Positions 6,288 to 27,847 are shown, counted from the first letter of the stretch. The stretch is DNA of 64,000 nt from Aerosakkonema sp. BLCC-F183 (GCF_041929145.1 NZ_JBHFNU010000005.1:20868-84867); one strand, 5' to 3'. A program made the numbers and translations. Notes: generated by a model from the sequence alone, not told the origin.

Positions 6288-6436
6288 GGAAGTCAAAAGT
6301 CAAAAGTCAAAATATTAATTCCCCCGCGACCCCGCGACCCCACGACCCCGCTTCCCCACTCTCCCTCTTCTTTTTGACTTTTGAATGCATGACTTTTGAC
6401 TTTTTCTAACCCCTAACCCCTAACCCCTAACCCCTA
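6288..6436. repeat. Composite STRR-like repeat element, copy A: (AGTCAAA)n – AATATTAATTC – C-rich heptamers – inverted GTCAAAAG arm – (TAACCCC)4
   Basis: Read directly; it shares the GTCAAAAGTCAAAAG, AATATTAATTC and CCCCCACT-type modules with the copies at 14090, 24284 and 27671. Confidence 0.8.
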
Positions 6437-6437
6437 T

Positions 6438-7304
6438 ATGAAAGCCAGAAAGATAAAGAAATCAGATGCTGACAACTCAGAACGTCCGCAGTCAGCAGAT
6501 AAAGTCGAAGCCATTCTTAAAGGTGCAATACAAGAGTTTCTCACTCATGGCTATGCTGCTACCACTATGGACAGGGTGACAGCAGCAGCAGGTGTATCGA
6601 AAGCGACGGTTTACAGCTACTTTCAGGATAAGGAAAGCTTATTCGCTGCTTTAGTCGAGCAATTGACGCAAAAGAATTATCAGGACTTTAATCCCCAAGA
6701 TCCGAGATTCTGGGAAGGAGAACCCGCCGAAGTTCTCCGCAAGTTAGCCGTAAATCTGCTCAAAAAAGTCGAGTGCAAACACGAATTTCGCGATTTAGTG
6801 CGGCTGATTATTGGCGAATCAGGACGTTTTCCGGTATTGGCGCAAATTTTTGTTCGTAATGTCGATCAAAAGCTTTTTCATCATCTCGTTGAATATCTGA
6901 AATCTTGTCAGGAATTGCAATTGCCCGATCCAGAAGCGGCAGCGCGGGTGTTTATCGGCACTTTAGTGCATTACGTAATTGTTCAGCATATGCTGCAAGC
7001 GCATAATATCATGCCGATGGAGAGCGATCGCCTGATCGACACTTTGATTTACCTGTTAACTGTTAACCAAAAGGATAAGCTGGCGGATAAGTATGCCGGT
7101 ACGCGCCACAAATCATGGCGTCGCAAGCGTTCTGCTGACGGGAAGTTTGAACCCGACTACCAAAGCGAACCAAAACGTTTGCGATCGATTCGCCTCACCG
7201 ATACAGCGTGGGAACAACTCGCGGCGATTGCCGAAAAAAATCAGATCACTCGCAGCGAAGCGATCGAAATCTTCGCTCGCAACGGCGAAATAGAACTCGA
7301 TTAA
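6438..7304 (+). CDS. TetR-family transcriptional regulator with an unusual ~80-aa basic/RHH-like C-terminal extension
   Basis: N-terminal HTH TTMDRVTAAAGVSKATVYSYFQDKESLF; divergent from the devBCA-like operon. C-terminal tail KSWRRKRSADGKFEPDYQ…LTDTAWEQLAAIAEKNQITRSEAIEIFARNGEIELD. Confidence 0.8.
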   Translation: MKARKIKKSDADNSERPQSADKVEAILKGAIQEFLTHGYAATTMDRVTAAAGVSKATVYSYFQDKESLFAALVEQLTQKNYQDFNPQDPRFWEGEPAEVLRKLAVNLLKKVECKHEFRDLVRLIIGESGRFPVLAQIFVRNVDQKLFHHLVEYLKSCQELQLPDPEAAARVFIGTLVHYVIVQHMLQAHNIMPMESDRLIDTLIYLLTVNQKDKLADKYAGTRHKSWRRKRSADGKFEPDYQSEPKRLRSIRLTDTAWEQLAAIAEKNQITRSEAIEIFARNGEIELD

Positions 7305-7334
7305 CTTATGATATACATGGTAAAGTAAACGTCC

Positions 7335-7352
7335 GGTGGGCATTGCCCACCC
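7335..7352. repeat. GGTGGGCATTGCCCACCC hairpin repeat, copy 1 of 3, just after the tetR stop
   Basis: 7-bp GC-rich stem with loop ATT; near-identical copies at 14288-14306 and 21731-21750, each 3' of a plus-strand gene; no T-tract follows. Confidence 0.6.
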
Positions 7353-7538
7353 TACAAATTACTTGCAGCAATTCTGCGGTTTTGTCACGTTATCCCACGA
7401 GAGAGTATAAATACGCAAATCATAGTTGCTCGATCGACAAGTTTACTCAAAGAATTATTGCCATTGTTATTAAAAAACATTCAATTCGGGCAATCTATAA
7501 ATAGACTGGCTTAAATCAGCAGACCGAGGGCGAATCCT

Positions 7539-8528
7539 ATGGATGGTCAAGAACTACTCAGACGCTATGCAGCAGGAGAAAGAGATTTTAGCGGAGCCAA
7601 TTTAATCGCAGCAAACCTGGAAAGAGCCTACTTAGTAGGAGCCAACTTTTCCGGAGCATATCTAGCAACCGCTAACCTCAGTCGCGCACAGCTAACAGGA
7701 GCAAATCTCAGTGGCGCATTTCTGCATCGCGTCGATTTAAGTTTTGCGAAGATCAACGAAGCAATATTAACAAACGCTGACTTAACAAAAGCCAACCTTA
7801 AAGGAGCGAACCTTGTCAAGTCCGTACTCACCGGTACAAAGCTCAGCGGAGCCATCCTCACATCAGTAAACCTGCATTTAGCGAACTTGCAGGGCGTTAA
7901 CTTGTGCGGTGCAGATTTGCGGGGAATTAATTTGCGTTCTGCCAATCTCGTCAATGCCAACCTAAATTGGGCCAATCTCAGTGGAGCCAGATTGAGCGGT
8001 GCTTTAGTGCGGGGAGCATTGCTCAACGGCGTTAATCTGAGCGGCGCTTTGTTGAATGGCGTAGACCTCAATAACATCGACTTGGATGGCGTCAACCTCA
8101 GCAATTCAAAACTGAGTGGAGCCAATCTCGCCGGAGCCAACCTTTCCGCCGCCAATCTGAGCAACGCTCAACTGCGCGTGTCGCTGCTGGCGAGGTCAAA
8201 CCTTCACGCCGCCAACCTGAATGGGGCAACCCTGAGCAAAGCCGACTTATGCGAAGCAAATCTTAATAAAGCAAACCTGTCATACGCCGATTTGAGCGAA
8301 GCTGACTTGACCGGAGCCACACTGAATATCTCAAGATTATCTTACGCCAATCTAACTAACGCTTGTCTGCGGAACGCCTACTTGTGGGGAGCTAACCTCA
8401 ATATCGCAGCGCTGTGCGGGGCAGACTTAAGCGGAGCCAGCTTACGCGGTGCATACATTGATGGTGCAAACTGGCAAGAAGCAATCCTCTCTGGTGCAAC
8501 AATGCCGGATGGAACGCTACACGATTGA
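7539..8528 (+). CDS. Pentapeptide-repeat protein, paralog 1
   Basis: Continuous A(N/D)LSxA(N/D)LSGA pentapeptide repeats across 329 aa; ~80% identical to ORF 13079..14074. Confidence 0.9.
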   Translation: MDGQELLRRYAAGERDFSGANLIAANLERAYLVGANFSGAYLATANLSRAQLTGANLSGAFLHRVDLSFAKINEAILTNADLTKANLKGANLVKSVLTGTKLSGAILTSVNLHLANLQGVNLCGADLRGINLRSANLVNANLNWANLSGARLSGALVRGALLNGVNLSGALLNGVDLNNIDLDGVNLSNSKLSGANLAGANLSAANLSNAQLRVSLLARSNLHAANLNGATLSKADLCEANLNKANLSYADLSEADLTGATLNISRLSYANLTNACLRNAYLWGANLNIAALCGADLSGASLRGAYIDGANWQEAILSGATMPDGTLHD

Positions 8529-8637
8529 TTTTGGGTTTAGGATTTTGGATTTTAGATGGCAGATGGAAAGATGAATTTGAATTTGCTTGCAAAATCAAAT
8601 TCGCCAAAAAACTGACCGATGACCAATGACCGATCGA

Positions 8638-10884
8638 TTAATAAAATACCAAGATAGTTACAATCAGCAATGTAGTGAGAAGACCCGGCCAATAAAGCAG
8701 CTTTGGTATCAGGTTATCTTTATATTCAATGAGACGAATTTTTGAGTTCAAAGTTAACACGATCGCATCAAGCGCCACTAGCAAAATGAAAAAATAGATC
8801 GCGAAGTAGAAGTACTCCAAGTAAATAATTCCTGTCGCAGTCACTTGTTGTCTTACCGTGATTTGATCCAGAATCACAATGAAGATAAAACCCGCACAAG
8901 CTCCCACTACTTCCATGCCGCGATCGTTCGACATCAGCATGATCGAAAATAGCAAGATAGCTACTACACTTAGGGGTACAATTCTGGCAATGAAAATCCC
9001 GATAAAAGCTCTTTTGAAGATCACAGTAAAATAAAGCTCTGGATAGTTTTTCTTGCCAAAACCGCTGCCCCCAAAATTGGAATTGTATTTCTTTAATTTG
9101 TACTCGAAAAAACTACTCTCAATATTCCAATTTTCCGTGACAAAATCTTCCTCCAAACCCGGTCTGGAAACAGGGTTTATCAAATCGTATGAAGTTAAAT
9201 CCGGCACTAGAATTACAGTTCTGTTTAAATCGAGTCGATTGATATCTTTCGGCCACAACCTGAGCCAGACATCATTATAGTCGAAGGGATATTTGGAAAA
9301 ATTAAAATTTTGCCTGATTGTGCCTTCAAAGTACCAACGGAGCAGATCGGTATTGTTAGTTGTGAACTTCTCAGGATCGCCAATTTGGATATCAGACGCT
9401 TCTGGCAGGATAAAACCTCGATTCACGCTTTCCGGGATATTTTTGTTATACTTCTGCCACACGTAACCGGTGACGAATACATCATTAGTTCCGGTAAATT
9501 TGAGAGACTGAATATAAACTCCGGTGGGAATGTACAGGGGTGGATCTTGCTTCAATTCCTCTGCTATGGCATTTTGGGGAGCCAATAAATTATCTACAGT
9601 TGCCTTGTTGAGCAGAATATTCCTGCTGTTTTTATAAGCTCGCTCCGATAAAGCAATATTCCAGATAATACCAATCGCTGCCACACATAAAATACTATAG
9701 GTACACGCCACTGCCCAAAGACTTTTGACGCTGCCCCTATGAGCGCGAAAGATTAGAATTGACAGAAAAAAGACAAATAATATCAACTCTAACCAAAGTA
9801 CGATCGTTTTTCGCCGTAACGTCGTGTTGTCGCTAGAACTTTCATCCTTGATGACAACTACTCCCAGCGACCATCCATTCAGAGGTAGCGGTTCGACAAT
9901 CATCCAGGAAGATTGACCCGTTATCTCATTTTGATACTCTACAACGGTGCTTTCCCCTTTGAGGGCTTTTTCACCTAATTCTCTAATTTCTTTCTTGTCA
10001 GTTTCCGTCGCTAAGTCAAAAATCGTTTTTTGATTTTTGACGTACTCGTCAATCGGATGAGCGATAAACACACCTTTCTTGGACAGCAAAAACCCGTAGC
10101 CAGACTTACCCAGATTGAGTGTCGCCATTAGCCTTTTGAGCTTATCTATTGAATAGTTGGCATAGATGACGCCCGCAGGCTCTTCCTTTTTAGTTTTTGG
10201 GTTAGTCCGAGAAAACCTGACGTTATAATCTACTATGAGAGCCTCAGAATATTTGTCAATATAAGGTTCAGCCCAAACAAAATCATTCCGTAAAGCATTG
10301 AAATACCACTCATTTTCTGGCGCTGGTTTAGCATAGTCGTTGTTATCCTCAATTTGGTTCAGTTTAATTGTGCCATCTTTTCTACCATAGAAAGGCGCAT
10401 ACAGACGCCGCCGAGAATACACGAAAGGTTGATAAGCAGCACCAATTGCCACAAAATCTGGATTTCTTTCAATTTCCTCTCGCAGCCTGTTTGTCAGCTG
10501 CTCATCCTTTAACTTCCCCGCAGTCAAATCGTAGGCAATCCCATTAGCTGCGCCTTGGAGTTTGCGAAGTTCTTGCTCTATCTTACGACTGGCATAAACA
10601 GTTTCCTGTCTGGCATTTATTTCAGCTTTTTGGATTACCTGATTTCTCTCTTCCGAGTAAGAATAAAAGCCGTAAGATGCCAAAAATAAACTGATACCGC
10701 AAAGTATTGTCGAGCAGTCAAATATTAATTTTTGGACTTTGCGTAGCTGAGGATTCACTTGTACAGTATCATCCTCTGTTGCGATCTCCGTTGTACCTTC
10801 TGCTGCTGGCTCCTCTTCTATCTGAGCATTCAAATCTATGAGCTTTTGACTAATTATCTGAGTTTTCACTCTCTTCATCTTCAT
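8638..10884 (-). CDS. Membrane protein with a periplasmic Cache-like sensor domain and a C-terminal multi-TM (CHASE2/7TMR-like) region; no recognizable output domain
   Basis: TM, then a Cache-like block (GYGFLLSKKGVFIAHP), TM helices, a second extracytoplasmic region and 4-5 C-terminal TM helices. No HisKA, GGDEF or other transmitter seen; start overlaps the upstream heme/HAMP gene by ~35 nt. Confidence 0.5.
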   Translation of the reverse strand: MKMKRVKTQIISQKLIDLNAQIEEEPAAEGTTEIATEDDTVQVNPQLRKVQKLIFDCSTILCGISLFLASYGFYSYSEERNQVIQKAEINARQETVYASRKIEQELRKLQGAANGIAYDLTAGKLKDEQLTNRLREEIERNPDFVAIGAAYQPFVYSRRRLYAPFYGRKDGTIKLNQIEDNNDYAKPAPENEWYFNALRNDFVWAEPYIDKYSEALIVDYNVRFSRTNPKTKKEEPAGVIYANYSIDKLKRLMATLNLGKSGYGFLLSKKGVFIAHPIDEYVKNQKTIFDLATETDKKEIRELGEKALKGESTVVEYQNEITGQSSWMIVEPLPLNGWSLGVVVIKDESSSDNTTLRRKTIVLWLELILFVFFLSILIFRAHRGSVKSLWAVACTYSILCVAAIGIIWNIALSERAYKNSRNILLNKATVDNLLAPQNAIAEELKQDPPLYIPTGVYIQSLKFTGTNDVFVTGYVWQKYNKNIPESVNRGFILPEASDIQIGDPEKFTTNNTDLLRWYFEGTIRQNFNFSKYPFDYNDVWLRLWPKDINRLDLNRTVILVPDLTSYDLINPVSRPGLEEDFVTENWNIESSFFEYKLKKYNSNFGGSGFGKKNYPELYFTVIFKRAFIGIFIARIVPLSVVAILLFSIMLMSNDRGMEVVGACAGFIFIVILDQITVRQQVTATGIIYLEYFYFAIYFFILLVALDAIVLTLNSKIRLIEYKDNLIPKLLYWPGLLTTLLIVTILVFY

Positions 10885-11803
10885 TTTCGATTTCCTCTTC
10901 CGTATCTGATATTAACGATTCTTTATATTTTTCTATTTCTATTTCGTAATCCCGCTTCATGCGGTTCAAATGTGTTTTTAAATTTCCTATTTCATTTTTA
11001 GAATCAACCTCAAATTCAAGTTCTCTTTCCCCGCTAACAATCGCCTTCGTCACTCTTGTCATCTCGTCAATAGGTTCGACAATAAAGCGATTTAACAATA
11101 ATTTTATTCCTGCTATTAAGAGCGCTAACGCCAACAATATAGTACCCAAAAACTTAAAAACTAACAGCTGGGCACTACCGAAAACTGTACCGACTGGTAC
11201 AGCAATCATTTGAGCGCCGACTATTTCATTCAGCTTCCAGCCAAACCCATTTTCTTTGCCGTACTGTGCAACCATACTTGGGGGAGCTTTTTCTGGCGTA
11301 TCGTGACATTCCAAACAACTAGCTTGAGTAACTTTTGCAGGTCGCGCTACATAAAATAATTTTTTGCCCCGATCGTCTCTATAACCTTCTACTTGTTCGA
11401 GCGCTTTTTCTTTGCGAAACCGCTCGATCAGCTGCGTTTCAAAATCATCCGCCTTATCCTTAATATTTGTCGGGTTAAGTGTCGCCTCTTTGTAGAAAAA
11501 ATCTTGATATTCTGGATTTTGGCGCAATCTTTCAAATACTTCTCTGGCTGCGAAAAAAGAAACGGATTCAGGGATAAATTCTTGAGCTAATCTAGTACCA
11601 AACTTGGGCTTCACCTGTTCGTTGGTGTACCTGTGAACGGCTATCATGGTCTTCATCATTATGCCAGCTTTGGTAGTTATTTCATTTCTGGCTCTATCTC
11701 GTATGCCGTTATTGATAACTACTCCGCTCAGCACTAATGCTCCTATGACAACTACGAGTGTTAACAAAGTGAAGAGTGTTTCTAGTTTAAGATTTTTTAA
11801 CAT
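10850..11803 (-). CDS. Tll0287-like (DUF3365) c-type heme sensor domain protein with HAMP domain and acidic tail; no output domain
   Basis: N-terminal TM; CXXCH heme-binding motif (ASCLECHDTPEKAP) inside a DUF3365-like domain; second TM followed by a HAMP-like segment (IVEPIDEMTRVTKAIVSGERELEFEVDSKNEIGNLKTHLNRM); poly-Glu/Asp C-terminus. Confidence 0.55.
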   Translation of the reverse strand: MLKNLKLETLFTLLTLVVVIGALVLSGVVINNGIRDRARNEITTKAGIMMKTMIAVHRYTNEQVKPKFGTRLAQEFIPESVSFFAAREVFERLRQNPEYQDFFYKEATLNPTNIKDKADDFETQLIERFRKEKALEQVEGYRDDRGKKLFYVARPAKVTQASCLECHDTPEKAPPSMVAQYGKENGFGWKLNEIVGAQMIAVPVGTVFGSAQLLVFKFLGTILLALALLIAGIKLLLNRFIVEPIDEMTRVTKAIVSGERELEFEVDSKNEIGNLKTHLNRMKRDYEIEIEKYKESLISDTEEEIENEDEESENSDN

Positions 11804-12045: not shown

Positions 12046-12789
12046 TCAACGGGTATCTTCCGAAGGTGGTACTGCTTGCGGACAAGTTTTGTGATTGACA
12101 TCGCAACTGAAAATATAGGTTTTCTGCCAGTTTAAAGGTATCTCCAGCAAATCCCGCGTACCTGTTAGTCCCTGTCCGATAAAAAGTAAGAGAGCAAAAC
12201 TGTTCAAAATTATATGAAAAGTTCGCCAGCGATTCGATTTATCTTTATAGATATCTTGCACAATGGCTAAAGAAAAAATCATCAGTAATGTGGCAGTAAT
12301 GCCGATGTAGTAATGAGACCAGTACCATTCATTCGTGCGACGAAAAACTCCGTCCTGACAACCGAGAAGGACTATACCCATCCCGGTTAAAGTCGCAAAA
12401 ACTCCGCGCCAGATTTTCTGCTTTGCGAGGTAGAGCAATACGAGGGCGGCGATCGTATCCAAAAACATCAGCAGGATAAAGGCAACTTGCAAAGGAGCTT
12501 TAGTCCAGGTGCGATCGCTCAAAATATGTTCGACAATATGGTAAGCTAACCCCACCAAAGTCAACCCCACAACCCAACCAGTCAGCCAGCGACCCATTTT
12601 GATGTGTTCTGGGCCAACATAGGAGGGAATTTTACTTTTGTCTTTGGCAGCAGTTTGCAAGCGACGCACGCGGGTCTGCCATGCAAAGTTTACCACTGTG
12701 CCAATCAGGGGAAAGACTAGCACGACTGCGATCGCCGGATGAATAAGAGCCAGAAAATCTTGGAATTCCATAACACACCCAGGAGTCAA
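12046..12789 (-). CDS. Integral membrane protein of unknown function (~6 TM)
   Basis: Hydrophobic segments throughout, with His-containing helices; no motif recognized. Confidence 0.5.
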   Translation of the reverse strand: MTPGCVMEFQDFLALIHPAIAVVLVFPLIGTVVNFAWQTRVRRLQTAAKDKSKIPSYVGPEHIKMGRWLTGWVVGLTLVGLAYHIVEHILSDRTWTKAPLQVAFILLMFLDTIAALVLLYLAKQKIWRGVFATLTGMGIVLLGCQDGVFRRTNEWYWSHYYIGITATLLMIFSLAIVQDIYKDKSNRWRTFHIILNSFALLLFIGQGLTGTRDLLEIPLNWQKTYIFSCDVNHKTCPQAVPPSEDTR

Positions 12790-13078
12790 AAGTCAAAAGT
12801 CATACATTCAAAAATCCTATAAGCGTCAGGCATTCAACTACTTCCGATCTGGTCGGTTACTTCTGCTGTACTGCGCTAGCCACCCAAAGTAGCATAGTTG
12901 AAAGTGGTTAACAAATAACTAATTACCAATGATTAATGGCTAACGACTAATGTAAAAATTCTTCATCTAATTATTAAGTCTCTGCATCAAACAACAACAA
13001 AATTAATGTTTTTTTTGGCATTTATGTGGGCAATCTAGAAATAGACGGGTAATTCAGCCCTAGCCGGAGCAAAATAAT

Positions 13079-14074
13079 ATGGACGCTAACGAACTACTCA
13101 GACGTTATGCAGCAGGAGAAAGAGATTTTAGTGGAGCTAATTTAATTGGAGCTAACCTAGAAAGCGCCCAACTCGTGGGAGCTAACTTTTCCGGTGCATA
13201 TCTAGCAGCAACCAACCTCAGCCGCGCACATCTAACGGGGGCAAATCTTTCCGGAGCATTTTTGCACCGCGCCGATCTAAGATTTGCGAAGCTAAACGAA
13301 GCAATATTAACAAACGCAGACTTAACAAAAGCTAATCTTCAAGGAGCCTTCATAGTTAAATCCGTGCTGACGGGAGCCAAACTGAGTGGCGCGATAATGA
13401 CAGCAGTAAACTTGCGTTTGGCAAATTTACAGGGCGTTAATCTGTGTGGCGCAGATTTGCGGGGCATTAATTTTCGTTCTGCCAATCTAGTAGATGCTAA
13501 CTTAAATTGGGCTAACCTCACGGGAGCCAGATTGAGCGGAGCCCAGTTGCGGGGAGCATTACTCAACGGCATCAAACTCAGTAAAGCTTTCCTCAATGGT
13601 GTAGACCTCAATAGCGTAGACTTGGATGGAGTCAATCTCAGCGAATCGAAACTGAGCGGAGCTAACCTCAGCGGAGCCAACCTTTCTGCAACTAACTTCA
13701 GCAATGCCCAGCTGCGCGTATCGATATTGGCCAGGACAAACCTTCACGCATCCAACCTCAGCGGTGCAAACCTTACCAAAGCCGACTTATGCGAAGCAAA
13801 TTTAAGTAAGGCAGACCTCTCATCCGCCGATATGAGCAAGGCAGATTTAACAGGCGCTAATCTAAATATGGCCGATCTCAGCGATGCCGACTTGAGCAAT
13901 GCCTGTTTGCGACAAGCTTACCTCTGGGGAGCTAACTTTAATGTGGCAGCAATGCGCGGCGCGGATTTGACTGGAGCTAGCTTGCGCGGAGCGTACATCG
14001 AAGGCACAGAAGCACACTGGCCGCAGGCAATTCTGACAGGAGCGACTATGCCTGATGGCAGTCGCCACAACTAA
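13079..14074 (+). CDS. Pentapeptide-repeat protein, paralog 2
   Basis: 331 aa, ~80% identical to 7539..8528, including a similar 5' leader (CAATCTA(T/G)AAATAGAC). Confidence 0.9.
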   Translation: MDANELLRRYAAGERDFSGANLIGANLESAQLVGANFSGAYLAATNLSRAHLTGANLSGAFLHRADLRFAKLNEAILTNADLTKANLQGAFIVKSVLTGAKLSGAIMTAVNLRLANLQGVNLCGADLRGINFRSANLVDANLNWANLTGARLSGAQLRGALLNGIKLSKAFLNGVDLNSVDLDGVNLSESKLSGANLSGANLSATNFSNAQLRVSILARTNLHASNLSGANLTKADLCEANLSKADLSSADMSKADLTGANLNMADLSDADLSNACLRQAYLWGANFNVAAMRGADLTGASLRGAYIEGTEAHWPQAILTGATMPDGSRHN

Positions 14075-14089
14075 GTTAGGGGCTAGAAA

Positions 14090-14195
14090 AACTTAAAAGT
14101 TAAAAGTCAAAAAAAGGGACTAGGGGCTAGAGGTTAGGGATTAGGGAAGAGGGAGAGGGAAGAGGGAAAAATATTAATTCTGTCCTCTGCCCCAT
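14090..14195. repeat. Composite STRR-like repeat element, copy B
   Basis: AAAAGTTAAAAGTCAAAAAAAGGG…GGGAAGAGGGAGAGGGAAGAGGGAAAAATATTAATTCTGTCCTCTGCCCC. Confidence 0.8.
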
Positions 14196-14287
14196 ATCCA
14201 ATTGGCAAAAAATTGGCTTTTCCACCACAAGTACCGGAGAAGCCACTTATTTGTGTTGGATTCATTTGAGAATTGCTGTAGGAGCTA

Positions 14288-14306
14288 GGGTGGGTATTGC
14301 CCACCC
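14288..14306. repeat. GGGTGGGTATTGCCCACCC hairpin repeat, copy 2 of 3
   Basis: Same hairpin as at 7335 and 21731. Confidence 0.6.
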
Positions 14307-14383
14307 TACTTGCTTATGGACAATCTCGCTGCAAAATGGTAATGGCAGCCTTACTAATCATTTTTGCAGCGAAATAAATTGCT

Positions 14384-17502: not shown

Positions 17503-19041
17503 ATGAATAACAAACCCATTCATATACTTTTGGTCGAAGATAGCCCTAGCGATGCAATCTTGCTGCGCCAACTCTTTTCGCGTCTAAACAGCGGGGAGTG
17601 GGAACTGATATGGGTTGAACGACTGAGTGATGCGATCGAGTCTTGCAGCGATTTCCTGTTTGATGTAGCTTTGTTAGACCTTTCTCTACCAGATTCTGAT
17701 GGATTGGAGACGGTAGCAGAATTTAACGCATCTGCACCAGATATCCCCATTGTAGTGCTGACGGGAGCTGACGATGAGGAGATGGGCTTGCAAGCGGTGG
17801 CAAAAGGAGCGCAAGATTATATTGTCAAAGACCAAATCACAGTTCAATTGCTAGTTAGGGCGATCCGCTATGCGATCGAACGCGGACAAATCCTCAAGCA
17901 ACTCCATGATAGCGAACGGCGTTTTCGGGGAATTTTTGACCAAACATTCCAACTGATGCTATTGTTAAGCCCAGAAGGAATTATTCTAGAAATTAACAAA
18001 ACATCTCTTGCTTTTTGTGGCGGCAAACAAAATGATTTTGTCGGTTCGCCGCTATGGGAGATCGACTGTTTGTATGATTCTCAGGTAACTCAGGAGTGGT
18101 TGAAAAGTGCGCTCGCCAACGCCGCTGAAGGTAATTTCGTCCGTAACGAACTCCAGATGTGCGGCGCAGAAAGTGCGATCGTCTGGATTGACTTATCGCT
18201 CAAGCCATTAAAAGATGAAAGGGGCAAAACTGTACTGCTGATTGCGGAAGGCAGGGATATTAGCGATCGCAAACGCGCTGAAGCAGAAGTACTCAAATCA
18301 TTGGAAAAAGAACGAGAACTCAATCAGCTTAAATCCAGTTTTATCTCAATGGTTTCCCACGAATTCCGCAACCCCATGACCGCAATTCGCACAGCTGCTC
18401 AAATTCTCCAAAGCTATGGCGATCGCTTGACTGAAGAACAAAAAATCAAATATTTTGACCAGATTAAGAATGCTGTCAACAATACCACTCAACTACTAGA
18501 AGAAGTCTTGCTTCTCGGTAAAACTGACGCCAACAGGCTGCAATATCAACCCGCCACTTTAGATTTAAAAGATTTTTGTCGCGAACTCATGGAAAATTTG
18601 CAATTCACCGCCACAGAACAGCACAACATTACCTTTACCTGTGCAGGAGAATGCAGCCAAGTTGAAATGGACGAATTTTTAATGGGACACATTTTTAACA
18701 ATTTAATCTCCAACGCTATTAAGTATTCTCCCCAAGGCGGCAACGTTCGGTTTAATTTAATTTGTCAAAACGGTACGGCGATTTTTCAGATTCAAGATGA
18801 AGGCATCGGCATTCCTTTAAAAGATCGACAACATTTGTTTGAAACTTTCTATCGCGGCAGCAATGTGAATCGAATTCAAGGCACGGGATTGGGACTGGCA
18901 ATTGTCAAAAAATGTGTAGATTTACACCGGGGACAAATTCAACTGCAAAGCGATGTAGGCGCTGGCACAACTTTTATTGTAACGCTGCCTTTAACTAGAT
19001 TTGCGGAAGTTCCGCGTCACATCATAGAGTGTGGCGTGTAG
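17503..19041 (+). CDS. Response-regulator receiver / PAS / histidine kinase hybrid
   Basis: N-terminal REC (LLVEDSPSDAILL…LLDLSLPDSDG), PAS, H-box ISMVSHEFRNPM, HATPase_c (DEGIGIP, GTGLGLAIVKK). Confidence 0.85.
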   Translation: MNNKPIHILLVEDSPSDAILLRQLFSRLNSGEWELIWVERLSDAIESCSDFLFDVALLDLSLPDSDGLETVAEFNASAPDIPIVVLTGADDEEMGLQAVAKGAQDYIVKDQITVQLLVRAIRYAIERGQILKQLHDSERRFRGIFDQTFQLMLLLSPEGIILEINKTSLAFCGGKQNDFVGSPLWEIDCLYDSQVTQEWLKSALANAAEGNFVRNELQMCGAESAIVWIDLSLKPLKDERGKTVLLIAEGRDISDRKRAEAEVLKSLEKERELNQLKSSFISMVSHEFRNPMTAIRTAAQILQSYGDRLTEEQKIKYFDQIKNAVNNTTQLLEEVLLLGKTDANRLQYQPATLDLKDFCRELMENLQFTATEQHNITFTCAGECSQVEMDEFLMGHIFNNLISNAIKYSPQGGNVRFNLICQNGTAIFQIQDEGIGIPLKDRQHLFETFYRGSNVNRIQGTGLGLAIVKKCVDLHRGQIQLQSDVGAGTTFIVTLPLTRFAEVPRHIIECGV

Positions 19042-19103
19042 AGAAAGCCGGTTTCTTGAAGAAACGCAGAGAAACCCGGTTTCTTGAAGAAACCGGGTTT
19101 CTG
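19042..19103. repeat. Palindromic hairpin repeat GAAACCCGGTTTC-TTGAA-GAAACCGGGTTTC with an adjacent degenerate copy
   Basis: Perfect 13-bp stem with a 5-nt loop at 19071-19101, preceded by a degenerate copy at 19042-19070; the same element occurs at 35960-35991 and as half-copies at 34906-34925. Confidence 0.75.
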
Positions 19104-19139
19104 GTCTACGCTTCATACAAAAGTACTGCGCGAAGGGCG

Positions 19140-21750: not shown

Positions 21751-21789
21751 TATAATTAAACATCAAGAAAACTGAGAAGGCAAATCTTG

Positions 21790-21981: not shown

Positions 21982-22110
21982 TTACTTAACGTTTCTCTTG
22001 AGGTAAATACGGAATCAGTAAATCCGATCGGTCCGATCGCATTCACTACTGATGAGTAATTATCCTAATAACTTGGGATATTTAACATTATAGCAACTGC
22101 GATATCTGCC

Positions 22111-23157: not shown

Positions 23158-23389
23158 AGCCAGATCGATCGCATTGATTACCGCTCGCCCATTATCCCCC
23201 GATCCGCTCCATCACTGCATAGCTTCTTGGCATTTTTTCACAACCGCGTCAGGCGATCGCACTCATTCCGCAGCAGTCAGAGAAAAGGGTAGGGAGTGCG
23301 ATCGCTTCCCAAATTTCTCTAAAAATGAATAGATAATGATAAAATACCCCCTTGTCCTCTCCCAGAAGATAGATGTACAATTATTTATG

Positions 23390-23560
23390 TAAAGAAGGGG
23401 AGTAGCTGCTAGCCAACCATTAAGCTAGCCCATCTGAATCAACATACTGGCGATGAGCCTGGTTCAGATGACAAGTTTGTGAAGCTCTGACCGCTGTAGA
23501 GGTTGGGCTAAAGCATTTCAACACTTGCAAGCGAGACCTTCACTAAGTTCACATTTGAAG
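23390..23560 (+). ncRNA. Candidate yybP-ykoY (Mn2+) riboswitch in the 5' leader of the GDT1/UPF0016 transporter gene
   Basis: AAGGGGAGUAGC motif at 23393-23406 and CAUACUGGCGAUGA at 23443-23456 resemble conserved yybP-ykoY loop sequences as I recall them; internal stem GCTAGC…GCTAGC; two downstream hairpins (TTGAAGAG…CTCTTCAA at ~23565-23590 and GTGAGCTTGGTGAA…TTCATCAAGCTCAC at ~23601-23640) could be the expression platform. UPF0016 genes are a known yybP-ykoY-regulated family. Not verified against a covariance model. Confidence 0.35.
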
Positions 23561-23667
23561 AGTTTTTACGATCTCTTCAATCAAAAAGATGTGAGCTTGG
23601 TGAAGTGTTTTGGCATTCATCAAGCTCACTCAGGAAGAAGAGAAACACACCAGAGGAGTTTGAGAAA

Positions 23668-24285
23668 ATGCTGACAGCTTTTACCGCCGGTTTATTGCTG
23701 ATTACAGTTTCGGAATTAGGGGATAAAACGTTTTTTATCGCTGCAATATTGGCAATGCGTCATTCGCGACGGCTGGTATTTGCGGGCGCGATCGCAGCTT
23801 TAGCAGCAATGACGATATTGTCTGTTTTAGTCGGACAAACTGTGTCTCTTTTACCGAAACAGTACGTTCAATTCGCGGAAATAGCTTTGTTTGTCGGTTT
23901 TGGGCTAAAGTTATTGTACGAAGCCAGTAAAATGTCAGGCAAAGCCGAATGCGACGAAGCAGAAGAAGCATTAGCGGCAGTTAAAGAAGCAGAAGCGAAA
24001 ATGCCTCGCCGCCAAAGCAAATTAGCGGTTTTAGTCAAAGCTTTTACAATGACTTTTGTGGCGGAATGGGGCGATCGCACTCAATTTGCCACCATCACCC
24101 TAGCCGCCTCCTACAATGCGGTCGGAGTAACCACAGGTGCTATTTTAGGTCATGCCATTTGTGCGGCGATCGCAGTCATGGGCGGACGCTTCATCGCCCA
24201 GCGAATTTCCGAACGCACTATGACTGCTGTGGGAGGTTTGTTATTTTTGATCTTCGCCGCCGTAGCTTGGATAGAAGCTGTTTAG
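23668..24285 (+). CDS. GDT1/UPF0016-family (Mnx/TMEM165-like) putative Mn2+/Ca2+ cation transporter
   Basis: Two signature motifs, ELGDKTFFIAAILA and EWGDRTQFATITLAA, each within a 3-TM repeat. The ORF caller starts at 23605, but the MLTAF start at 23668 is more plausible. Confidence 0.8.
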   Translation: MLTAFTAGLLLITVSELGDKTFFIAAILAMRHSRRLVFAGAIAALAAMTILSVLVGQTVSLLPKQYVQFAEIALFVGFGLKLLYEASKMSGKAECDEAEEALAAVKEAEAKMPRRQSKLAVLVKAFTMTFVAEWGDRTQFATITLAASYNAVGVTTGAILGHAICAAIAVMGGRFIAQRISERTMTAVGGLLFLIFAAVAWIEAV

Positions 24286-24430
24286 GGGCTAGGGCTAGGG
24301 CGTCGGGGCTAGGGCGTCGGGGCTAGGGGAAGAGGGAAGAGGGGAAATATTAATTCTTCCGCTCCCCCACTCCCCCGCTCCCCCACTCCCCCACTCCCCC
24401 ACTCCCCCACTCCCCCACTCCCCACTTTCT
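24284..24430. repeat. Composite STRR-like repeat element, copy C
   Basis: (GGGCTAGGGCGTCGG)2 GGGAAGAGGGAAGAGGGG AAATATTAATTCTTCC (GCTCCCCCACT/CCCCCACT)x8. Confidence 0.8.
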
Positions 24431-25432
24431 TCAATTACCTTGTTCGGTGTTATCTGTATTCGAGTTACCATCTGGTGACTCTTCCGTTTCAGGGCTATCG
24501 GTGTCGGAGTTGCTATCGGGTGACTCTTGGACTTCCGGCGGTGGAGATGCAGATGCGAGCTGATTGATTTGGTCTTTATATTGAGCTGGAGCTAAAGACG
24601 CCGCAGAGGAAAACAGAGGTTGAGCTTCCTCATTTTTGCCTTGTTTTTGGAGTACGATCGCCTTAGCTAACACCGGACGAAAATCTTCCTTATCAGCTTT
24701 GATAGCTCGATCGAAAGCTGCGATCGCTTCTGGGTAGCTTTCCTGTTCCGCGTAAACTCTTCCCAGCATCAACCGCACCGAAACTTCATCCACAGTTTCC
24801 GGCTTAATTTGATTCAGCTTGGGTGCATTATCCAGCGTATCTTGCAACAATCCGATCGCCGCTTGCGGACGTTGTTGATCGAGCAACAAGTTTACCAGTC
24901 CATCCAAAGCCTTGAGATCTCCTGGTTTAGACTCCAAAATCGTGCGATAAATCGTCGCTGCTCCTTCAATATCGCCAACTTGCTGCTTAGTTTGAGCTAG
25001 CAGCACCGTGTATTCAGTTTGCTCCGGACTGAGTTTAGCGAGTTTTTCCAGGGGTTCGATCGTATCCTTTATACTACCCACTCCTAAGCGAACCAGTTCC
25101 AGCTTCGTGTCGATCAGTCCTTTGAGTGCAGTTCGATCGTCTGGTTTGCGCTGCAAAACCTGTTCGTAACCCCTAACCTGGATTTCCAGTTCTGCTTGCT
25201 TTGCTTGGGTTGACTCCACCGCAGGTGTCGCCGCCGTTGGGTCAGACGATTGCTCTTGCACAAAAGCTTGACTCAAAAAGGAAGACCTGCCAAGCAAAAA
25301 TCCACCTACGGTAATCAATATCAGAAGTAACCCCGCACCTATTAACCAGCGATTGTTATTTTTGCTTTGGGCTACGCGATCGCGCTTTTGGGACACATGA
25401 GTGCTTTGAACTCTAACTAAAGACATTATCAA
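24431..25432 (-). CDS. Membrane-anchored TPR-repeat protein, tandem paralog 1
   Basis: N-terminal TM, TPR-like helical repeats, Ser/Pro/Asp-rich tail; paralogous to 25458..26192 (shared …KEDFRPVLAKAIVLQKQGKNEEAQPLFSSAASLAP…). Confidence 0.6.
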   Translation of the reverse strand: MIMSLVRVQSTHVSQKRDRVAQSKNNNRWLIGAGLLLILITVGGFLLGRSSFLSQAFVQEQSSDPTAATPAVESTQAKQAELEIQVRGYEQVLQRKPDDRTALKGLIDTKLELVRLGVGSIKDTIEPLEKLAKLSPEQTEYTVLLAQTKQQVGDIEGAATIYRTILESKPGDLKALDGLVNLLLDQQRPQAAIGLLQDTLDNAPKLNQIKPETVDEVSVRLMLGRVYAEQESYPEAIAAFDRAIKADKEDFRPVLAKAIVLQKQGKNEEAQPLFSSAASLAPAQYKDQINQLASASPPPEVQESPDSNSDTDSPETEESPDGNSNTDNTEQGN

Positions 25433-25457
25433 GGCTGGGAAAGGATTGCCAGCAAAG

Positions 25458-26192
25458 CTAATTTTTTGCAGGAGTTGATTCTGGAGATGGGGTTGCTGCT
25501 GGTTTAACAGAGCTATCTGTAGATGGAGAAGTAGATGGAGAAGTAGTCGAGTCAGGCTTGGGGGCTGAGGTTTGAGTTTGGATCTGTGCGATTTGGGCCT
25601 TAACTCGCTCTTTTAACTCAGGTGGTGCCAAATCCGCAGCACTAGCAAACAGAGGCTGTGCTTGTTCCGTTTTGCCTTGTTGTTGCAGCACAATCGCCTT
25701 AGCAAACACCGGTCGAAAATCTTTTTTGTTGCTGTCGATCGCCTTATCCAGGAGCGCGATCGCCTCGTCGTAACGTTTCTGCTGAGTGTAAAAGCTTGCC
25801 AAGTCTATCTGCACCCCAACGTCTTTAGGATTGAGCGAAGCCAGTTTTTCCATCGGTGCGATCGCATCTTTGATATCGCCCAATCCCAATCCAGCCATTT
25901 GTTGACGAGTAGCGATCAATTGTCTCAGCGCCACTTGATTATCTGGTTCTCGCTGCAAAACCAGCTCGAAACCGTTCGCTCTAGCTTGCAGTTCCTCCTT
26001 TATCGCCGTCGCTTGCACCTGAGCGGATGTCGCCGATACCCCAGGCGAGCCCTGCTGAAAAGCCTGTATAAGGGGAACGATCGACGCCCCTACAAAAGGG
26101 ATGATTCCAAAGATCATCATTCCCAAAATCAACCAGCGACGGAGTTTATCTGACACACAACTCTTTTGAACTCTAATCACATTATCAACCAT
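25458..26192 (-). CDS. Membrane-anchored TPR-repeat protein, tandem paralog 2
   Basis: As above; …KKDFRPVFAKAIVLQQQGKTEQAQPLFASAADLAP…. Confidence 0.6.
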   Translation of the reverse strand: MVDNVIRVQKSCVSDKLRRWLILGMMIFGIIPFVGASIVPLIQAFQQGSPGVSATSAQVQATAIKEELQARANGFELVLQREPDNQVALRQLIATRQQMAGLGLGDIKDAIAPMEKLASLNPKDVGVQIDLASFYTQQKRYDEAIALLDKAIDSNKKDFRPVFAKAIVLQQQGKTEQAQPLFASAADLAPPELKERVKAQIAQIQTQTSAPKPDSTTSPSTSPSTDSSVKPAATPSPESTPAKN

Positions 26193-26525
26193 AGAGAAAA
26201 AGGTATAGTTAGCGCGGTCTGAGATTGAGATATTTCGCTCTGGTCATGGTTGGCAGTTTATTGTTAACTGCAATCAACCGCACCATAAACTACCACAAAG
26301 CCAAAATGCCGTAGTCTCAAAGAAACTTTGCGGATTGCAGCGAAAATTAATTGCATTCAGTAGAATAGGCACGCCGATCTCATCATCGGTCCGCGAGCGC
26401 CAACGGCAGTACACCTGCGGCGACAGTCCTTGTCGGCGAAGTTCCCGCCCTGTGAACTCCGGAGGAACGCGAGAGCGAATAGAGTAGTAGATACTAGGTT
26501 TTGACTTCTGGCTAGTACAAGGGAT

Positions 26526-27671
26526 TTGCAAAGGTTCTCGGTTATCGACCGGATTTCCTACCCAAGTCCAGTTTGTGCTTATCTCTCACTAGGAGCCAGA
26601 GGAAGTGTGTCTCCGCTGCAAGGAGTTCTTATGAGTCCCTCTCCGAATCAGTTCCCCCAGTCTTCTAGCGGTTCCGAACAAGCTAAGGCCGAATTACCGG
26701 TCGTTCGTAAGCCCAATCCACCCAAGCCCCCTGTCACCCAAGCGGCTACCCCTCCTACTCCCCCGGCTACAGCACCTACACCACCGGCGGCTGCCTCCAC
26801 GACCCAGGCTCCTACCCCTGCGATCGAGAAAAGCGATGCCAACATTTCTGGTGAGGTCATGGCGACTGAAACCGATAAGGATGGTGGGCGGCGGCAAGAG
26901 CCCATTCCGGCTCCCAGCGAACCGATGCAATATCGGGCCATTGGCTTAGTACGGGGCAAATATAGCCCCAGTGCAGAGCAATTTACGCGCGGTCTGTTAC
27001 TAGCCTCTGATGGGCAGGAGATCGATTCTGTGCTGTTAGGTCGCGTAATGAGTCTGGTGAAGAATCACCTAGATTTAGAAACCGAACACCTGTGGGTAGT
27101 TTATCCGCGAACGCGACAAAATGATGATGCTTTACACCTTCAAATTGTGGGAGTTTGGGAACCAGAAAACCTTGACAAAAGTTTGTCTTCCACTGACGAG
27201 ACATCGGCAAGCGATGTAACCGAAGCATCGAGATCGAGCAATTTAGAAGCTGAGAGTTCCCCCGTTGAAGATGGTTATTTTTCGATTCGCGGTGAGGTAG
27301 TTTATCAATCTCACGACGAACAAAAAATCATCGTCAAGATTAAGCAAGCACCGCGCAAGGAAGATGAAAAGCCCAAATTTTTTAAGCTCACACTCAAAGG
27401 TGTTTTGGAAAGAAAGGCTGTGGGATACTTCTGGGAATTCCATATCCAGCGACTGGCTAACGACCTCCTAATTCAGGAGGCCAAAGATATCGCATCCTTG
27501 CGTCCGAGTAAGCCCAGGAAACCTTTTAAAGGTAAAAAACCGGGTGGTAAAAAGTTTGGTAAATATCCAGGGCCAGGGGCTGGCAGCAATCGTCCAGTAC
27601 CCGCAGGCGCTAAACCTCCCACCGAAAAGCCAATTCCTCGACCGACGAAACGTCAGCAACCGAGTACCTAA
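26526..27671 (+). CDS. Hypothetical protein with a Pro/Thr-rich N-terminal region and a basic Lys/Pro-rich C-terminal tail
   Basis: Long ORF; the true start is probably internal (MSPSPNQF at ~26631); no domain recognized. Confidence 0.45.
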   Translation: MQRFSVIDRISYPSPVCAYLSLGARGSVSPLQGVLMSPSPNQFPQSSSGSEQAKAELPVVRKPNPPKPPVTQAATPPTPPATAPTPPAAASTTQAPTPAIEKSDANISGEVMATETDKDGGRRQEPIPAPSEPMQYRAIGLVRGKYSPSAEQFTRGLLLASDGQEIDSVLLGRVMSLVKNHLDLETEHLWVVYPRTRQNDDALHLQIVGVWEPENLDKSLSSTDETSASDVTEASRSSNLEAESSPVEDGYFSIRGEVVYQSHDEQKIIVKIKQAPRKEDEKPKFFKLTLKGVLERKAVGYFWEFHIQRLANDLLIQEAKDIASLRPSKPRKPFKGKKPGGKKFGKYPGPGAGSNRPVPAGAKPPTEKPIPRPTKRQQPST

Positions 27672-27847
27672 AAAAGTCAAAAGTCAAAAAAGGGAATAGG
27701 GGTTAGGGCGTCGGGGCTAGGGGAAGAGGGAAGAGGGAAGAGGGAAGAGGGAAGAGGGAAGAGGGAAATATTAATTCTTCTGCTCCCCTGCCCCCCTGCT
27801 CCCCTGCCCCCCTGCTCTCCTGCTCCCCCACTCCCCCACTCCCCCAC
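27671..27847. repeat. Composite STRR-like repeat element, copy D
   Basis: AAAAGTCAAAAGTCAAAAAAGGG…(GGGAAGA)x6 AATATTAATTCTTCTG (CTCCCCTGCCCCCCTG)x2 …CCCCCACTCCCCCACTCCCCCAC. Confidence 0.8.

Follow-up and report, generated by a model that had tools for sequence, protein, structure and literature searches.

The window analysed here, a 64-kb stretch of DNA from the filamentous cyanobacterium Aerosakkonema (order Aerosakkonematales, subclass Oscillatoriophycideae; a genus not known to form heterocysts), contains four composite repeat elements built around one short AT-rich core. The question they raise is whether this core is a conserved protein-binding site, as the original prediction suggested, or whether the elements are arrays of another kind. 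The four elements are a local instance of a known cyanobacterial repeat class, that of fast-changing G-rich arrays of 7-8-base units. We put the probability of the whole reading, hypervariable arrays of the STRR/G4-heptamer class that form hairpins at gene ends and have a putative 3'-end role, at about 60 %.

Repeat elements and their shared core

The 12-nt core AAATATTAATTC occurs exactly four times in the window, each time on the plus strand (starting at 6310, 14169, 24345 and 27766), with purine-rich heptamers on one side of every copy and C-rich octamers on the other. Exact matches to AATATTAATTC also numbered four, all on the plus strand (6311, 14170, 24346 and 27767), against a chance expectation of 0.11 in the window, and this count was reached in 0 of 100 shuffles. 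The shared strand of the four core copies is not significant alone (p about 0.125), and the G-rich-then-C-rich polarity reads identically from both strands, orientation being set only by the core and the unit types. Sequence inspection and TRF bore out the positions of the four elements and the order of their modules. Tandem 7-8-mers were detected by TRF at six window loci, and at least 10 heptamer arrays across the 64 kb; one of the window's arrays, (ACAACTG)18, runs up to the start codon at 47877, an ATG. A shared composite architecture beyond simple repeats had been proposed, and it holds: besides the core, copies C and D have a common block of 20-32 nt, and a second motif, TTTTGAATGNATGACTTTTGAC, is common to copy A, the partial copy at 12784 and copy D of FACHB-1355. 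The gene contexts were likewise as described, with A in a divergent spacer, B amid two plus-strand genes, and C and D in convergent spacers.

Copy A (6288..6436, plus strand) separates an HlyD-FtsX-ABC efflux operon (minus) from tetR (plus). It comprises (AGTCAAA)3 at 6290-6312 (TRF, (AAGTCAA)3.3), the core at 6310-6321, C-rich octamers CCCCGCGA/CCCCACGA with a TC-rich stretch at 6322-6371 ((CCCCGCGA)3.8), an inverted (TTTTGAC)n arm with TTTTGAATGCATGAC at 6372-6404 ((TTTTGAC)4.6) and (CTAACCC)4 at 6406-6436 ((CTAACCC)4.4), which ends 1 nt short of the tetR ATG (6438). The fold prediction pairs the AGTCAAA and TTTTGACT arms with each other (-33.7 kcal/mol, z -5.3). Two G4 motifs (6321-6365 and 6410-6434) are located on the minus strand. 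TRF and a motif check showed that the partial copy proposed at 12784-12802 is real: the module (12784..12820, minus strand) consists of (AGTCAAA)2.7 followed by CATACATTCAAAAA, reads on the minus strand as TTTTTGAATGTATGACTTTTGACTTTTGACT, the motif of the right arm of copy A, and overlaps the start region of a DUF4079 gene (minus).

Copy B (14076..14195, plus strand) starts 2 nt past the stop codon (14072-14074) of a pentapeptide-repeat gene (plus). Its first modules are GTTAGGGGCTAG and (AAAAGTY)3.6 at 14088-14112, and they are followed by a G-arm at 14115-14168 (GGGACTA, GGGGCTA, GAGGTTA, GGGATTA, GGGAAGA, GGGAGA and GGGAAGA), the core at 14169-14180 and a short C-rich tail at 14181-14195; TRF gave (AAAAGTT)3.6 and (AGGGAAG)3.9. 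It contains one G4 motif (14137-14166, plus strand), and a clean hairpin separate from it lies downstream at 14286-14308.

Copy C (24283..24430, plus strand) fills the whole convergent spacer between the stop codons of a GDT1 gene (plus) and a TPR gene (minus, stop at 24431-24433), and the GDT1 stop TAG (24283-24285) is part of its first repeat unit. A G-arm of GGGGCTA/GGGCGTC/GGGAAGA (24283-24344; TRF, (GGGCTAGGGCGTCG)2.6), the core (24345-24356) and a C-arm of (CTCCCCCA)7.8 (24357-24423) are predicted to form a hairpin that spans the copy and has its loop at the core (-63.1 kcal/mol on the plus strand and -84.2 on the minus strand), and G4 motifs are present at 24285-24344 (plus) and 24364-24423 (minus). 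Copy D (27669..27847, plus strand) occupies the convergent spacer between a hypothetical gene (plus), at whose TAA (27669-27671) it begins, and an HcyBio gene (minus), whose stop (27855-27857) it approaches to within 8 nt. It is composed of (AAAAGTC)2.6 (27672-27689), a G-arm including (GGGAAGA)6.7 (27692-27765), the core (27766-27777) and a C-arm (27778-27847) of CTGCTCCC/CTGCCCCC and then CTCCCCCA (TRF, (CTGCTCCC)8.1). The predicted hairpin reaches -74.3 kcal/mol (plus) and -88.8 (minus), with UUUUUUGACUUUUGACUUUUUU directly after it on the minus strand, and the G4 motifs are at 27692-27765 (plus) and 27785-27812 (minus).

The copy said to lie within cheA also exists. Copy E (57100..57261, plus strand) is a core-less, coding copy, in frame in an ORF (56683-59730) with Hpt, HATPase_c, CheW and REC domains, which specifies a CheA-like hybrid kinase; the copy lies within the linker that joins two of its Hpt domains, and its translation includes ...GRTGERESQKSKVKSQNSSSSLSPPPSPSPSSSTPSPSSPTPPPPVSP... 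The order is (GGGAGAAC)2, (AAAGTCA)4 and AAATTC, then a TC/C-rich stretch; its junction AAAATTCTTCC equals that of copy C minus TATTA, and its G4 motifs (57161-57183 and 57215-57261) are on the minus strand.

Strand rule and predicted structures

The arrays follow a strand rule. They start at or inside the stop codon, and the coding strand of stop-adjacent arrays is G-rich in all six independent cases (B, C-left, C-right, D-left, D-right and L234 14356), while at start codons it is the non-coding strand that is G-rich (A twice, L228 479, L232 267 and the L178 insertion). In the convergent spacers C and D, the opposed arrays meet head-on and occupy the gap from stop to stop, giving a predicted hairpin of 150-190 nt with the core as loop and a long, imperfect, bulged stem in either transcript. 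The opposing arms are not unit-for-unit complements, GGGAAGA standing opposite CTGCTCCC/CTCCCCCA. The element proposed for each of these spacers is better seen as two independent G-rich arrays, one behind each converging gene on that gene's sense strand.

The elements were expected to be structured, and strong hairpins of -63 to -89 kcal/mol (z -4 to -7) were indeed predicted; since G-rich and C-rich arms pair whatever their history, these z-scores are not evidence for a selected structure. The suggested G-quadruplex capability agrees with the 11 G4 motifs in the window (0.36 expected window-wide), nine of which fall inside copies A-E. The motifs of the elements carry 4-11 G-runs, on the plus strand in B, C and D and on the minus strand in A, C, D and E, and single arms are predicted to fold as G4 at -19 to -77 kcal/mol (ViennaRNA, G4 allowed). 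When the stop-to-stop spacers at loci C and D were folded for five lineages, all gave a spanning hairpin, even without G/C arrays. A consensus scan for intrinsic (Rho-independent) terminators, which are characterised by a compact GC-rich stem with a short loop and an immediately following U-tract, called none of the elements, and a U-rich run after the stem is clear only for copy D on the minus strand. Rfam gave zero matches in the window at the gathering threshold, and at E up to 1 only sub-threshold eukaryotic miRNA-precursor hairpins, which are generic long hairpins.

Comparison with related strains

Loci C and D are occupied in all three Aerosakkonema strains. Copy C is remodelled in the sister strain, which is 99% identical (66% identity vs 99% in the flanks), and copy D in a more distant strain shows 65% identity vs about 94.5% in the flanks. 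When the 3048-nt gene with copy E was compared with that of the sister strain, 11 of 21 substitutions fell within about 155 nt at the copy, an elevation of about 20-fold, though the copy is coding. Copies A, B and D, together with the partial copy at 12784, are identical in the sister strain; with A, B and D the same in the two closest strains, the term hypervariable rests on C, E and the more distant strain. At locus D, Floridanema and BLCC-F154 keep the order G-arm, centre and C-arm in other sequence, with the core unrecognisable. The locus D architecture is inverted once in more distant relatives: the right arm and AATTC junction of copy D match BLCC-F154 only if inverted (local score 64 vs 22).

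One alternative is that the arrays are functionless, slippage-prone and self-perpetuating like microsatellites, and kept where they are least harmful, in gene 3' flanks and in the spacers of convergent gene pairs. Their capacity to form hairpins and G4 would then be a by-product of composition, and the shared core an accident of local duplication. We regard this as rather unlikely, though it is the most probable of the alternatives: sequence and core are unconserved among close relatives, the substitution excess affects even a coding copy, the elements lack canonical terminator features, and Rehm et al. (2015) assigned no function to similar arrays, which are under-represented between divergent genes (PMC4692102). 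However, the architecture of locus D persists across genera while its sequence is wholly turned over, the arrays start at or within the stop codon, and the fact that the sense strand is consistently G-rich behind stop codons calls for selection or for a directional mutational process linked to transcription.

A discrete mobile family (MITE-like, or a small dispersed repeat), in which a core-bearing hairpin integrates into TA-rich sites before slippage expands its arms, is improbable. It would account for an 82-nt insertion, flanked by direct repeats of TATA, that is seen in FACHB-1355-type strains only and missing from the window and the sister strain; this has TATAGC...GCTATA ends and the order G-units, GGAATTAAG and ACGCCC, a miniature G-arm/loop/C-arm. 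Modules common to unrelated loci in both orientations, and the breaks of the strain's short-read contigs at elements, also fit. Yet copies A-D have neither terminal inverted repeats nor target-site duplications, their arrays abut stop or start codons, and every strain compared carries them at these loci, with the one 82-nt insertion polymorphism elsewhere; the locations of C and D are shared by three strains, that of D also by other genera, and an empty site was found for none of the four. The unique half of the insertion had no second occurrence in the sequence examined, and searches of 185,579 genomes, of metagenomes and of plasmids yielded nothing similar.

A still more doubtful alternative is that the AT-rich core is the binding site of a nucleoid protein or regulator between G4- and i-motif-forming arms. 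The exact 12-mer at four loci whose neighbouring arrays differ is in its favour, as are the small palindromes AATATT and AATT in the core and its location at the hairpin apex, and for Nostoc 7120 the authors of a preprint speculate that some protein, not yet identified, binds heptamer repeats. Conservation of the core as a functional site nevertheless failed in close relatives, where orthologues have substitutions or another centre while the architecture is kept. In the strain with 95% identity, the C core differs by two substitutions and D has another centre; the variants at the orthologous C locus are AAAATATGAATTC and AAAACATTTATTC, the centre of copy D is replaced in FACHB-1355, and in E the core is down to AAATTC. 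Beyond this lineage the G-arm/core junction was absent as a composite element and unenriched, with chance matches only in 185,579 species genomes and JGI metagenomes. We partly observe and partly infer that the 12-nt core is a lineage-specific junction motif and not a conserved binding site.

Proposed origin and role of the arrays

According to the preferred reading, that of hypervariable arrays with a putative 3'-end role, the core is a junction that on the minus strand reads as G-array, (A)GAATT and then A/T-rich sequence, and it would travel with the arrays. It would be shared at nearby loci because the arrays have common ancestry or exchange sequence, without selection as a binding site. 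Exchange or portability of blocks is suggested by the 20-nt block GCTAGGGCGTCGGGGCTAGG found in C, D and a different FACHB-1355 locus, by the motif TTTTGAATGNATGACTTTTGAC common to A, the 12784 module and D of FACHB-1355, and by the inverted match of D to BLCC-F154; exchange would explain the exact 12-mer at four loci only partly. The array behind each converging gene would meet the opposite one head-on to produce the G-arm, AT-rich centre and C-arm, which could fold as a cruciform or, in the transcripts from both sides, as a hairpin. Unit numbers vary, presumably by slippage; recombination, or template switching between like arrays, may copy or flip blocks from one locus to another, and new array-bearing segments may be inserted, for which the 82-nt insertion of FACHB-1355-type strains is an example.

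At the transcript 3' ends of converging genes, the hairpin or G4 may act as a terminator-like block, insulator or stabiliser, and may replace the ordinary hairpins of relatives in equivalent spacers. A transcript-end hairpin is our best guess for the role of the elements. Against it, the simple terminator scan misses them and copy B has its own downstream hairpin, and a terminator makes no sense for copy A, which is in a promoter or leader region.

It is very improbable that an orientation-sensing process writes and moves the arrays, with blocks copied, flipped (window vs BLCC-F154 at D) and inserted (82 nt); if true, a G-rich strand that is always sense after stops and antisense before starts, despite flips, would point to a transcription-coupled mechanism, such as template switching primed by R-loops or G4 at the ends of genes, or to a dedicated enzyme that recognises the GAATT junction, and would explain the small heptamer set at many gene ends in cyanobacterial genomes.

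Comparison with known repeat systems

STRR are tandem heptanucleotide arrays that Mazel and colleagues reportedly described in 1990 at many intergenic loci of heterocystous filamentous cyanobacteria, with consensuses said to be CCCCA(A/G)T (STRR1), TT(G/T)GTCA (STRR2) and CAACAGT (STRR3). They vary enough among strains to serve for fingerprinting. The arrays of the window are likewise heptanucleotide and dispersed over many loci (at least 10 in 64 kb), but their units GGGGYTA/TAACCCC, AGTCAAA/TTTTGAC, GGGAAGA, CTCCCCCA and ACAACTG are no rotation or reverse complement of these consensuses, Aerosakkonema is not known to form heterocysts, and the composite quasi-palindromic layout is outside the STRR definition. 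Vioque is said to have reported in 1997 (NAR) that STRR arrays occur in helix P12 of the RNase P RNA of heterocystous cyanobacteria. There, reportedly, heptamer arrays also pair mutually and lengthen an RNA hairpin with function kept, although the host is a structured RNA gene, whereas here it is mRNA 3' flanks, spacers and one protein linker.

The REP/BIME sequences of enterobacteria are imperfect palindromes that, like the window elements, occupy gene 3' flanks and the gaps between convergent genes, and as transcribed hairpins they stabilise or terminate the upstream mRNA. REPs are units of about 35 nt with a fixed sequence, spread by the RAYT transposase; in contrast, the window elements have neither a fixed unit nor an associated transposase, and their arms are tandem repeats. 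TAACTGA direct repeats are found in Beggiatoaceae and cyanobacteria a few nt from start codons, and a role in translation, not at 3' ends, was proposed for them (MacGregor 2015; PMC4679880). The (ACAACTG)18 array at its ATG and the (CTAACCC)4 before tetR are similarly placed, but the TAACTGA units are A/T-rich without G4 potential.

The closest likeness is to the G4-forming heptamers (GGGAATC in Xanthomonas and GGGGA(C/T)T in Nostoc PCC 7120) described by Rehm et al. (2015, PLoS One; PMC4692102). These are mostly intergenic and lie at a distance of 0-50 nt, either past the stop codon, which they often overlap, on the coding strand or ahead of the start codon on the non-coding strand; convergent opposite-strand pairs form inverted repeats or stem-loops (70-75 cases in Xanthomonas, called rare in Nostoc), close relatives show large length and sequence differences at the same loci, and the C-strand is i-motif capable (PMC4692102). 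The window arrays are also tandem GGG(G)NNNN heptamers of at least two units, often with at least four uninterrupted G-tracts, follow the same position and strand rule at stops (6/6) and before the tetR ATG, and vary between strains at the same loci (C and D); their quadruplexes are predicted (ViennaRNA, single arms). They differ in the fixed succession of unit types along the arms (AAAAGTC, GGGGYTA/GGGCGTC and GGGAAGA), in the octamers CTCCCCCA and CTGCTCCC of the opposing arm, in their non-heterocystous host and in the exact 12-nt centre common to four loci.

Architecture and genomic context of the elements

Four intergenic stretches had been described as sharing one order of modules, and reading of the sequence together with the units placed by Tandem Repeats Finder confirmed that order. 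Copy A (6288-6436) contains (AAGTCAA)3.3, (CCCCGCGA)3.8, (TTTTGAC)4.6 and (CTAACCC)4.4, copy B (14076-14195) contains (AAAAGTT)3.6 and (AGGGAAG)3.9, copy C (24283-24430) contains (GGGCTAGGGCGTCG)2.6 and (CTCCCCCA)7.8, and copy D (27669-27847) contains (GGGAAGA)6.7 and (CTGCTCCC)8.1. The stretch common to all four, referred to here as the core, is 12 nt long (AAATATTAATTC). The 11-mer AATATTAATTC occurs four times in the window against 0.11 expected, and none of 100 shuffles reached four. All four cores are on the + strand. The G-rich-then-C-rich polarity is strand-symmetric and reads identically from either strand. About 77 kb of the genome region was covered and 21.5 kb of it contains all four cores, a clustering that is not significant by our own estimate (p ~0.07).

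The gene context claimed for the copies was borne out. Copy A occupies the divergent spacer that separates an HlyD-FtsX-ABC operon from tetR, copy B lies 2 nt 3' of the stop of a pentapeptide-repeat gene, copy C between the convergent GDT1 and TPR genes, and copy D between a hypothetical gene and a homocysteine-biosynthesis (HcyBio) gene, also convergent. The HcyBio protein matches an NCBI 'MULTISPECIES [Aerosakkonema]' entry at 100% identity. Two further copies are likewise real, the partial one at 12784 (12784-12820) and one without the core inside a CheA-like gene (copy E, 57100-57261). In the CheA-like hybrid kinase encoded by ORF 56683-59730, the stretch of copy E (57100-57255) supplies a linker rich in Ser and Pro that joins two Hpt domains. 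Short-read contigs of the strain (Logan SRR30638120) end exactly at the elements. Another ends at a 28-nt unit (AGAGAAACCCGGTTTCTTGAAGAAACGC) repeated 1.9 times at 19040-19122, which contains the palindrome GAAACCCGGTTTC and lies directly 3' of the stop of a hybrid kinase gene (17503-19041).

Several other features were observed near the copies. Two near-perfect palindromes, GTAAACTAAACGATTTAGTTTAC and AAACTAAACCGTGTAGTTTAGTTT, which look like TetR operators, are found at 6200-6256 between the HlyD-FtsX-ABC operon and tetR, and copy A sits between them and the tetR start codon. The segment 8638-11803 carries a dCache MCP and DUF3365/HAMP gene pair; it may be accessory within the genus, because the DUF3365 protein, 100% identical to a BLCC-F183 protein, has a next-best database match of only 47%. 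Upstream of the GDT1/UPF0016-family gene (23605-24285), the stretch 23391-23478 on the + strand gives a weak score for the yybP-ykoY Mn2+ riboswitch (RF00080; 22.6 bits against a gathering threshold of 45; E-value 0.012 in 23 kb and 0.0003 in 543 nt), with a hairpin (23539-23604) in between. This candidate riboswitch would plausibly suit a Mn exporter gene. The gene at 30671-33427 (- strand) codes for a protein of 886 aa that is homologous to the major vault protein of eukaryotes (Pfam Vault, Vault_2/3/4 and MVP_shoulder), and it is conserved in all Aerosakkonema strains seen.

Predicted structures and strand rule

The elements had also been proposed to be structured and G4-capable, and the predictions support this for copies A to E. 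The window holds 11 G4 motifs where 0.36 would be expected, and nine of the 11 fall within copies A to E. Those of the + strand belong to the left arms of B, C and D, and those of the - strand to the right arms of A, C, D and E. Copies C and D are predicted to form long imperfect spanning hairpins, with a stem made of the G-rich arm on the left and the C-rich arm on the right, and with the core as apical loop (C, -63 kcal/mol on the + strand and -84 on the - strand; D, -74 and -89; z of -4 to -7). In the case of copy A, the AGTCAAA arm is predicted to pair with the inverted TTTTGACT arm. A single arm alone would form one or two quadruplexes, and in a full-length transcript the hairpin is predicted to compete with or beat them.

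Compared unit by unit, the two arms do not complement each other: GGGAAGA stands opposite CTGCTCCC/CTCCCCCA. Because of this and of the strand-symmetric polarity, the best reading of copies C and D is a pair of independent G-rich arrays each, one behind each converging gene on its sense strand, which begin at the stop codon, meet in the middle of the spacer and occupy it from stop to stop. The GDT1 stop TAG of copy C forms part of the first GGGGCTA unit.

Array composition and position follow a strand rule. In six of six independent cases, the coding strand is the G-rich one where an array adjoins a stop codon (B, C-left, C-right, D-left, D-right and an array of the sister strain GCA_041929185.1 at L234 14356). 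Where an array abuts a start codon (the two in A, L228 479 and L232 267 of the compared genomes, and an 82-nt insertion described below), the G-rich strand is the non-coding one in every case.

Comparison of the loci between strains

The sister strain was compared over the parts of the window on either side of 39-52 kb. Its flanks are 99.1-99.6% identical to the window, and copies A, B and D and the 12784 partial copy are identical. Copy C has been remodelled, with 66% identity in the aligned columns and the centre AAAATATGAATTC. For FACHB-1355 (94-95% identical), the comparison covered copies C and D. The centre of C is AAAACATTTATTC in this strain and that of D differs as well (AATTTTGAATGATTGACTTTTAACTTTTGACT), resembling the right arm of copy A and the 12784 partial copy of the window. 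Floridanema and BLCC-F154, whose HcyBio is 85-86% identical to that of the window, keep the succession of G-rich arm, AT-rich centre and C-rich arm in the D spacer with different units and centres, and have ordinary hairpins in place of arrays in the C spacer. Conversion of copy C by D in the window lineage was considered and dropped, since its three orthologues can be aligned as a single locus; the core of the window is nearest to their consensus.

As far as the sequences of these strains go, the core is not conserved. The original prediction of a conserved protein-binding core is not upheld, as the core is substituted at C and replaced at D in the compared strains and reduced to AAATTC in E. 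A core that binds a protein is a less likely explanation for A to D. The junction of copy E consists of AAATTC only. Read on the - strand, all copies have in common a G-array, then (A)GAATT, then A/T-rich sequence, and for this reason we take the core to be a junction motif moving together with the array.

Sequence blocks are common to several loci. The block GCTAGGGCGTCGGGGCTAGG is common to C and D in the window; in FACHB-1355 it is missing from both and found at a third locus. In FACHB-1355, copies C and D lack the GGGCGTC unit and the 82-nt insertion contains it, and the idea of its complete absence from that strain was thus rejected. Inversion is needed for the right arm of window D, taken together with its AATTC junction, to match the D spacer of BLCC-F154 (local score 64 vs 22), and the Floridanema D left arm matches the window in direct orientation.

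The 82-nt insertion carries G-rich heptamers and lies directly 5' of the HcyBio start in FACHB-1355-type strains (L178 9916-9997 in FACHB-1355, also L179 and L180). It is absent from this site in the sister strain and in the window (empty site 29055-29127), and the equivalent spacer of a more distant related MAG is only 42 nt long. TATA direct repeats lie on both sides of it, its ends are TATAGC...GCTATA, and it runs from G-units through GGAATTAAG to ACGCCC. Copy E has changed by substitution: 11 of the 21 substitutions between the window and sister-strain cheA fall inside its 155 nt with its length unchanged, that is ~7% divergence vs 0.35% across the rest of the gene. Taken together, the architecture outlasts the turnover of the sequence.

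Searches for a wider family

One genome per species (185,579 species) was scanned with the pattern AGAGGGN{0,2}AAATATTAATTC, which is bound to the GGGAAGA-type left junction and does not reach copies like A. The 65 matches were single and scattered across unrelated phyla. None of the nine cyanobacterial matches inspected had arrays, and five of the nine represent a single orthologous Dolichospermum locus. No Aerosakkonema record matched, yet B and D of the sister strain fit the pattern, so the assemblies that bear this junction are outside the one-per-species collection. A pattern one base longer gave 43 chance matches in metagenomes, and GGGAN{0,2}AATATTAATTCT gave 108 single chance matches in viral contigs, which serve as background calibration only. 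When copy D and the 82-nt insertion were compared with PLSDB plasmids by BLAST, no match was found, although low-complexity filtering is likely to have hidden most of D. Rfam returned no family for the elements at gathering or at E-values up to 1. A discrete mobile family, to which the ends and flanking repeats of the 82-nt insertion could point, is less likely for A to D.

Origin and function

Slippage, together with recombination or template switching between like arrays, could have produced both the variation and the common core. Between converging genes the arrays may act as transcript-end structures. This role is suggested because the stop-to-stop spacers at the C and D loci of five lineages all fold into a spanning hairpin, with or without G/C arrays, because D on the - strand gives a hairpin followed by a U-rich run, and because cyanobacteria are without Rho. 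Against it, a consensus terminator scan of the window did not call the elements, B has a separate clean hairpin downstream (14286-14308), and the site of A is a leader or promoter region. Pairing of a G-rich with a C-rich arm is also to be expected regardless of any role, which counts against transcript-end function as well, and purely neutral arrays are a serious rival explanation.

Three decades after their description, heptamer arrays rank with the commonest and most poorly understood repeats of cyanobacteria. The window offers a compact and comparable set of five loci that can be traced across strains 99%, 95% and ~85% related. Across these, the G-rich sense strand after a stop and the opposed arrays as a spacer-filling hairpin outlive the sequence, and blocks are common to loci, inverted or inserted between loci. 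Two questions can be addressed in the culturable BLCC/FACHB Aerosakkonema: whether arrays end or insulate transcripts in a Rho-less organism, and whether they spread by a copying mechanism beyond in-place slippage. As for annotation, array spacers break short-read assemblies, overlap stop codons and can be co-opted as coding linkers. The elements are thus a tractable comparative system for the origin and action of such arrays.

Comparison with known repeat classes

Copies A to D show neither the terminal inverted repeats nor the target-site duplications of MITEs, and tests of the elements as intrinsic terminators and against every Rfam family were negative. The general definition of short tandemly repeated repetitive sequences (STRRs) covers them, but the canonical STRR unit sequences and host range do not. 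STRRs were reportedly first described in heterocystous genera by Mazel in 1990; Aerosakkonema, a genus of the Aerosakkonematales in the Oscillatoriophycideae, is therefore outside those genera.

Other repeats were also present in the window. The last unit of an (ACAACTG)18 array (47754-47881) reaches into the start codon (ATG, 47877) of a gene for a NanE-like epimerase. The CAACTGA unit of the array is a one-base variant of the TAACTGA repeats found just 5' of start codons by MacGregor 2015 (PMC4679880). Two short ORFs lie just 5' of this array (46607-47523), the first of them (138 aa) with an HTH_Tnp_4 transposase domain, for which an exact-protein look-up matched only a Logan contig of the same strain. 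Equivalent look-ups for the histidine kinase and the DUF3365 protein gave no match or short Logan contigs of this strain alone. The 18-nt unit (TTGATATTTTGTGGGCTC), repeated 14.8 times at 40601-40867, is a 6-residue coding repeat in a 1388-aa ORF (39065-43231, - strand), which also contains a C7/G7 palindrome (41760-41800).

In the features tested, the elements agree with the G4-forming heptamer-repeat class. They obey the strand distribution already reported for the G-rich heptamer repeats of Xanthomonas and Nostoc PCC 7120 by Rehm et al. 2015 (PMC4692102), who observed quadruplex and i-motif formation in vitro and identified no function. The same study found 70-75 convergent, stem-loop capable array pairs in Xanthomonas and 'only a few' in Nostoc, and very different repeat sequences at the same loci of close relatives. 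Particular to the Aerosakkonema elements are the ordered succession of unit types in each arm, the octamer counter-arm, the common 12-nt junction and the host lineage.
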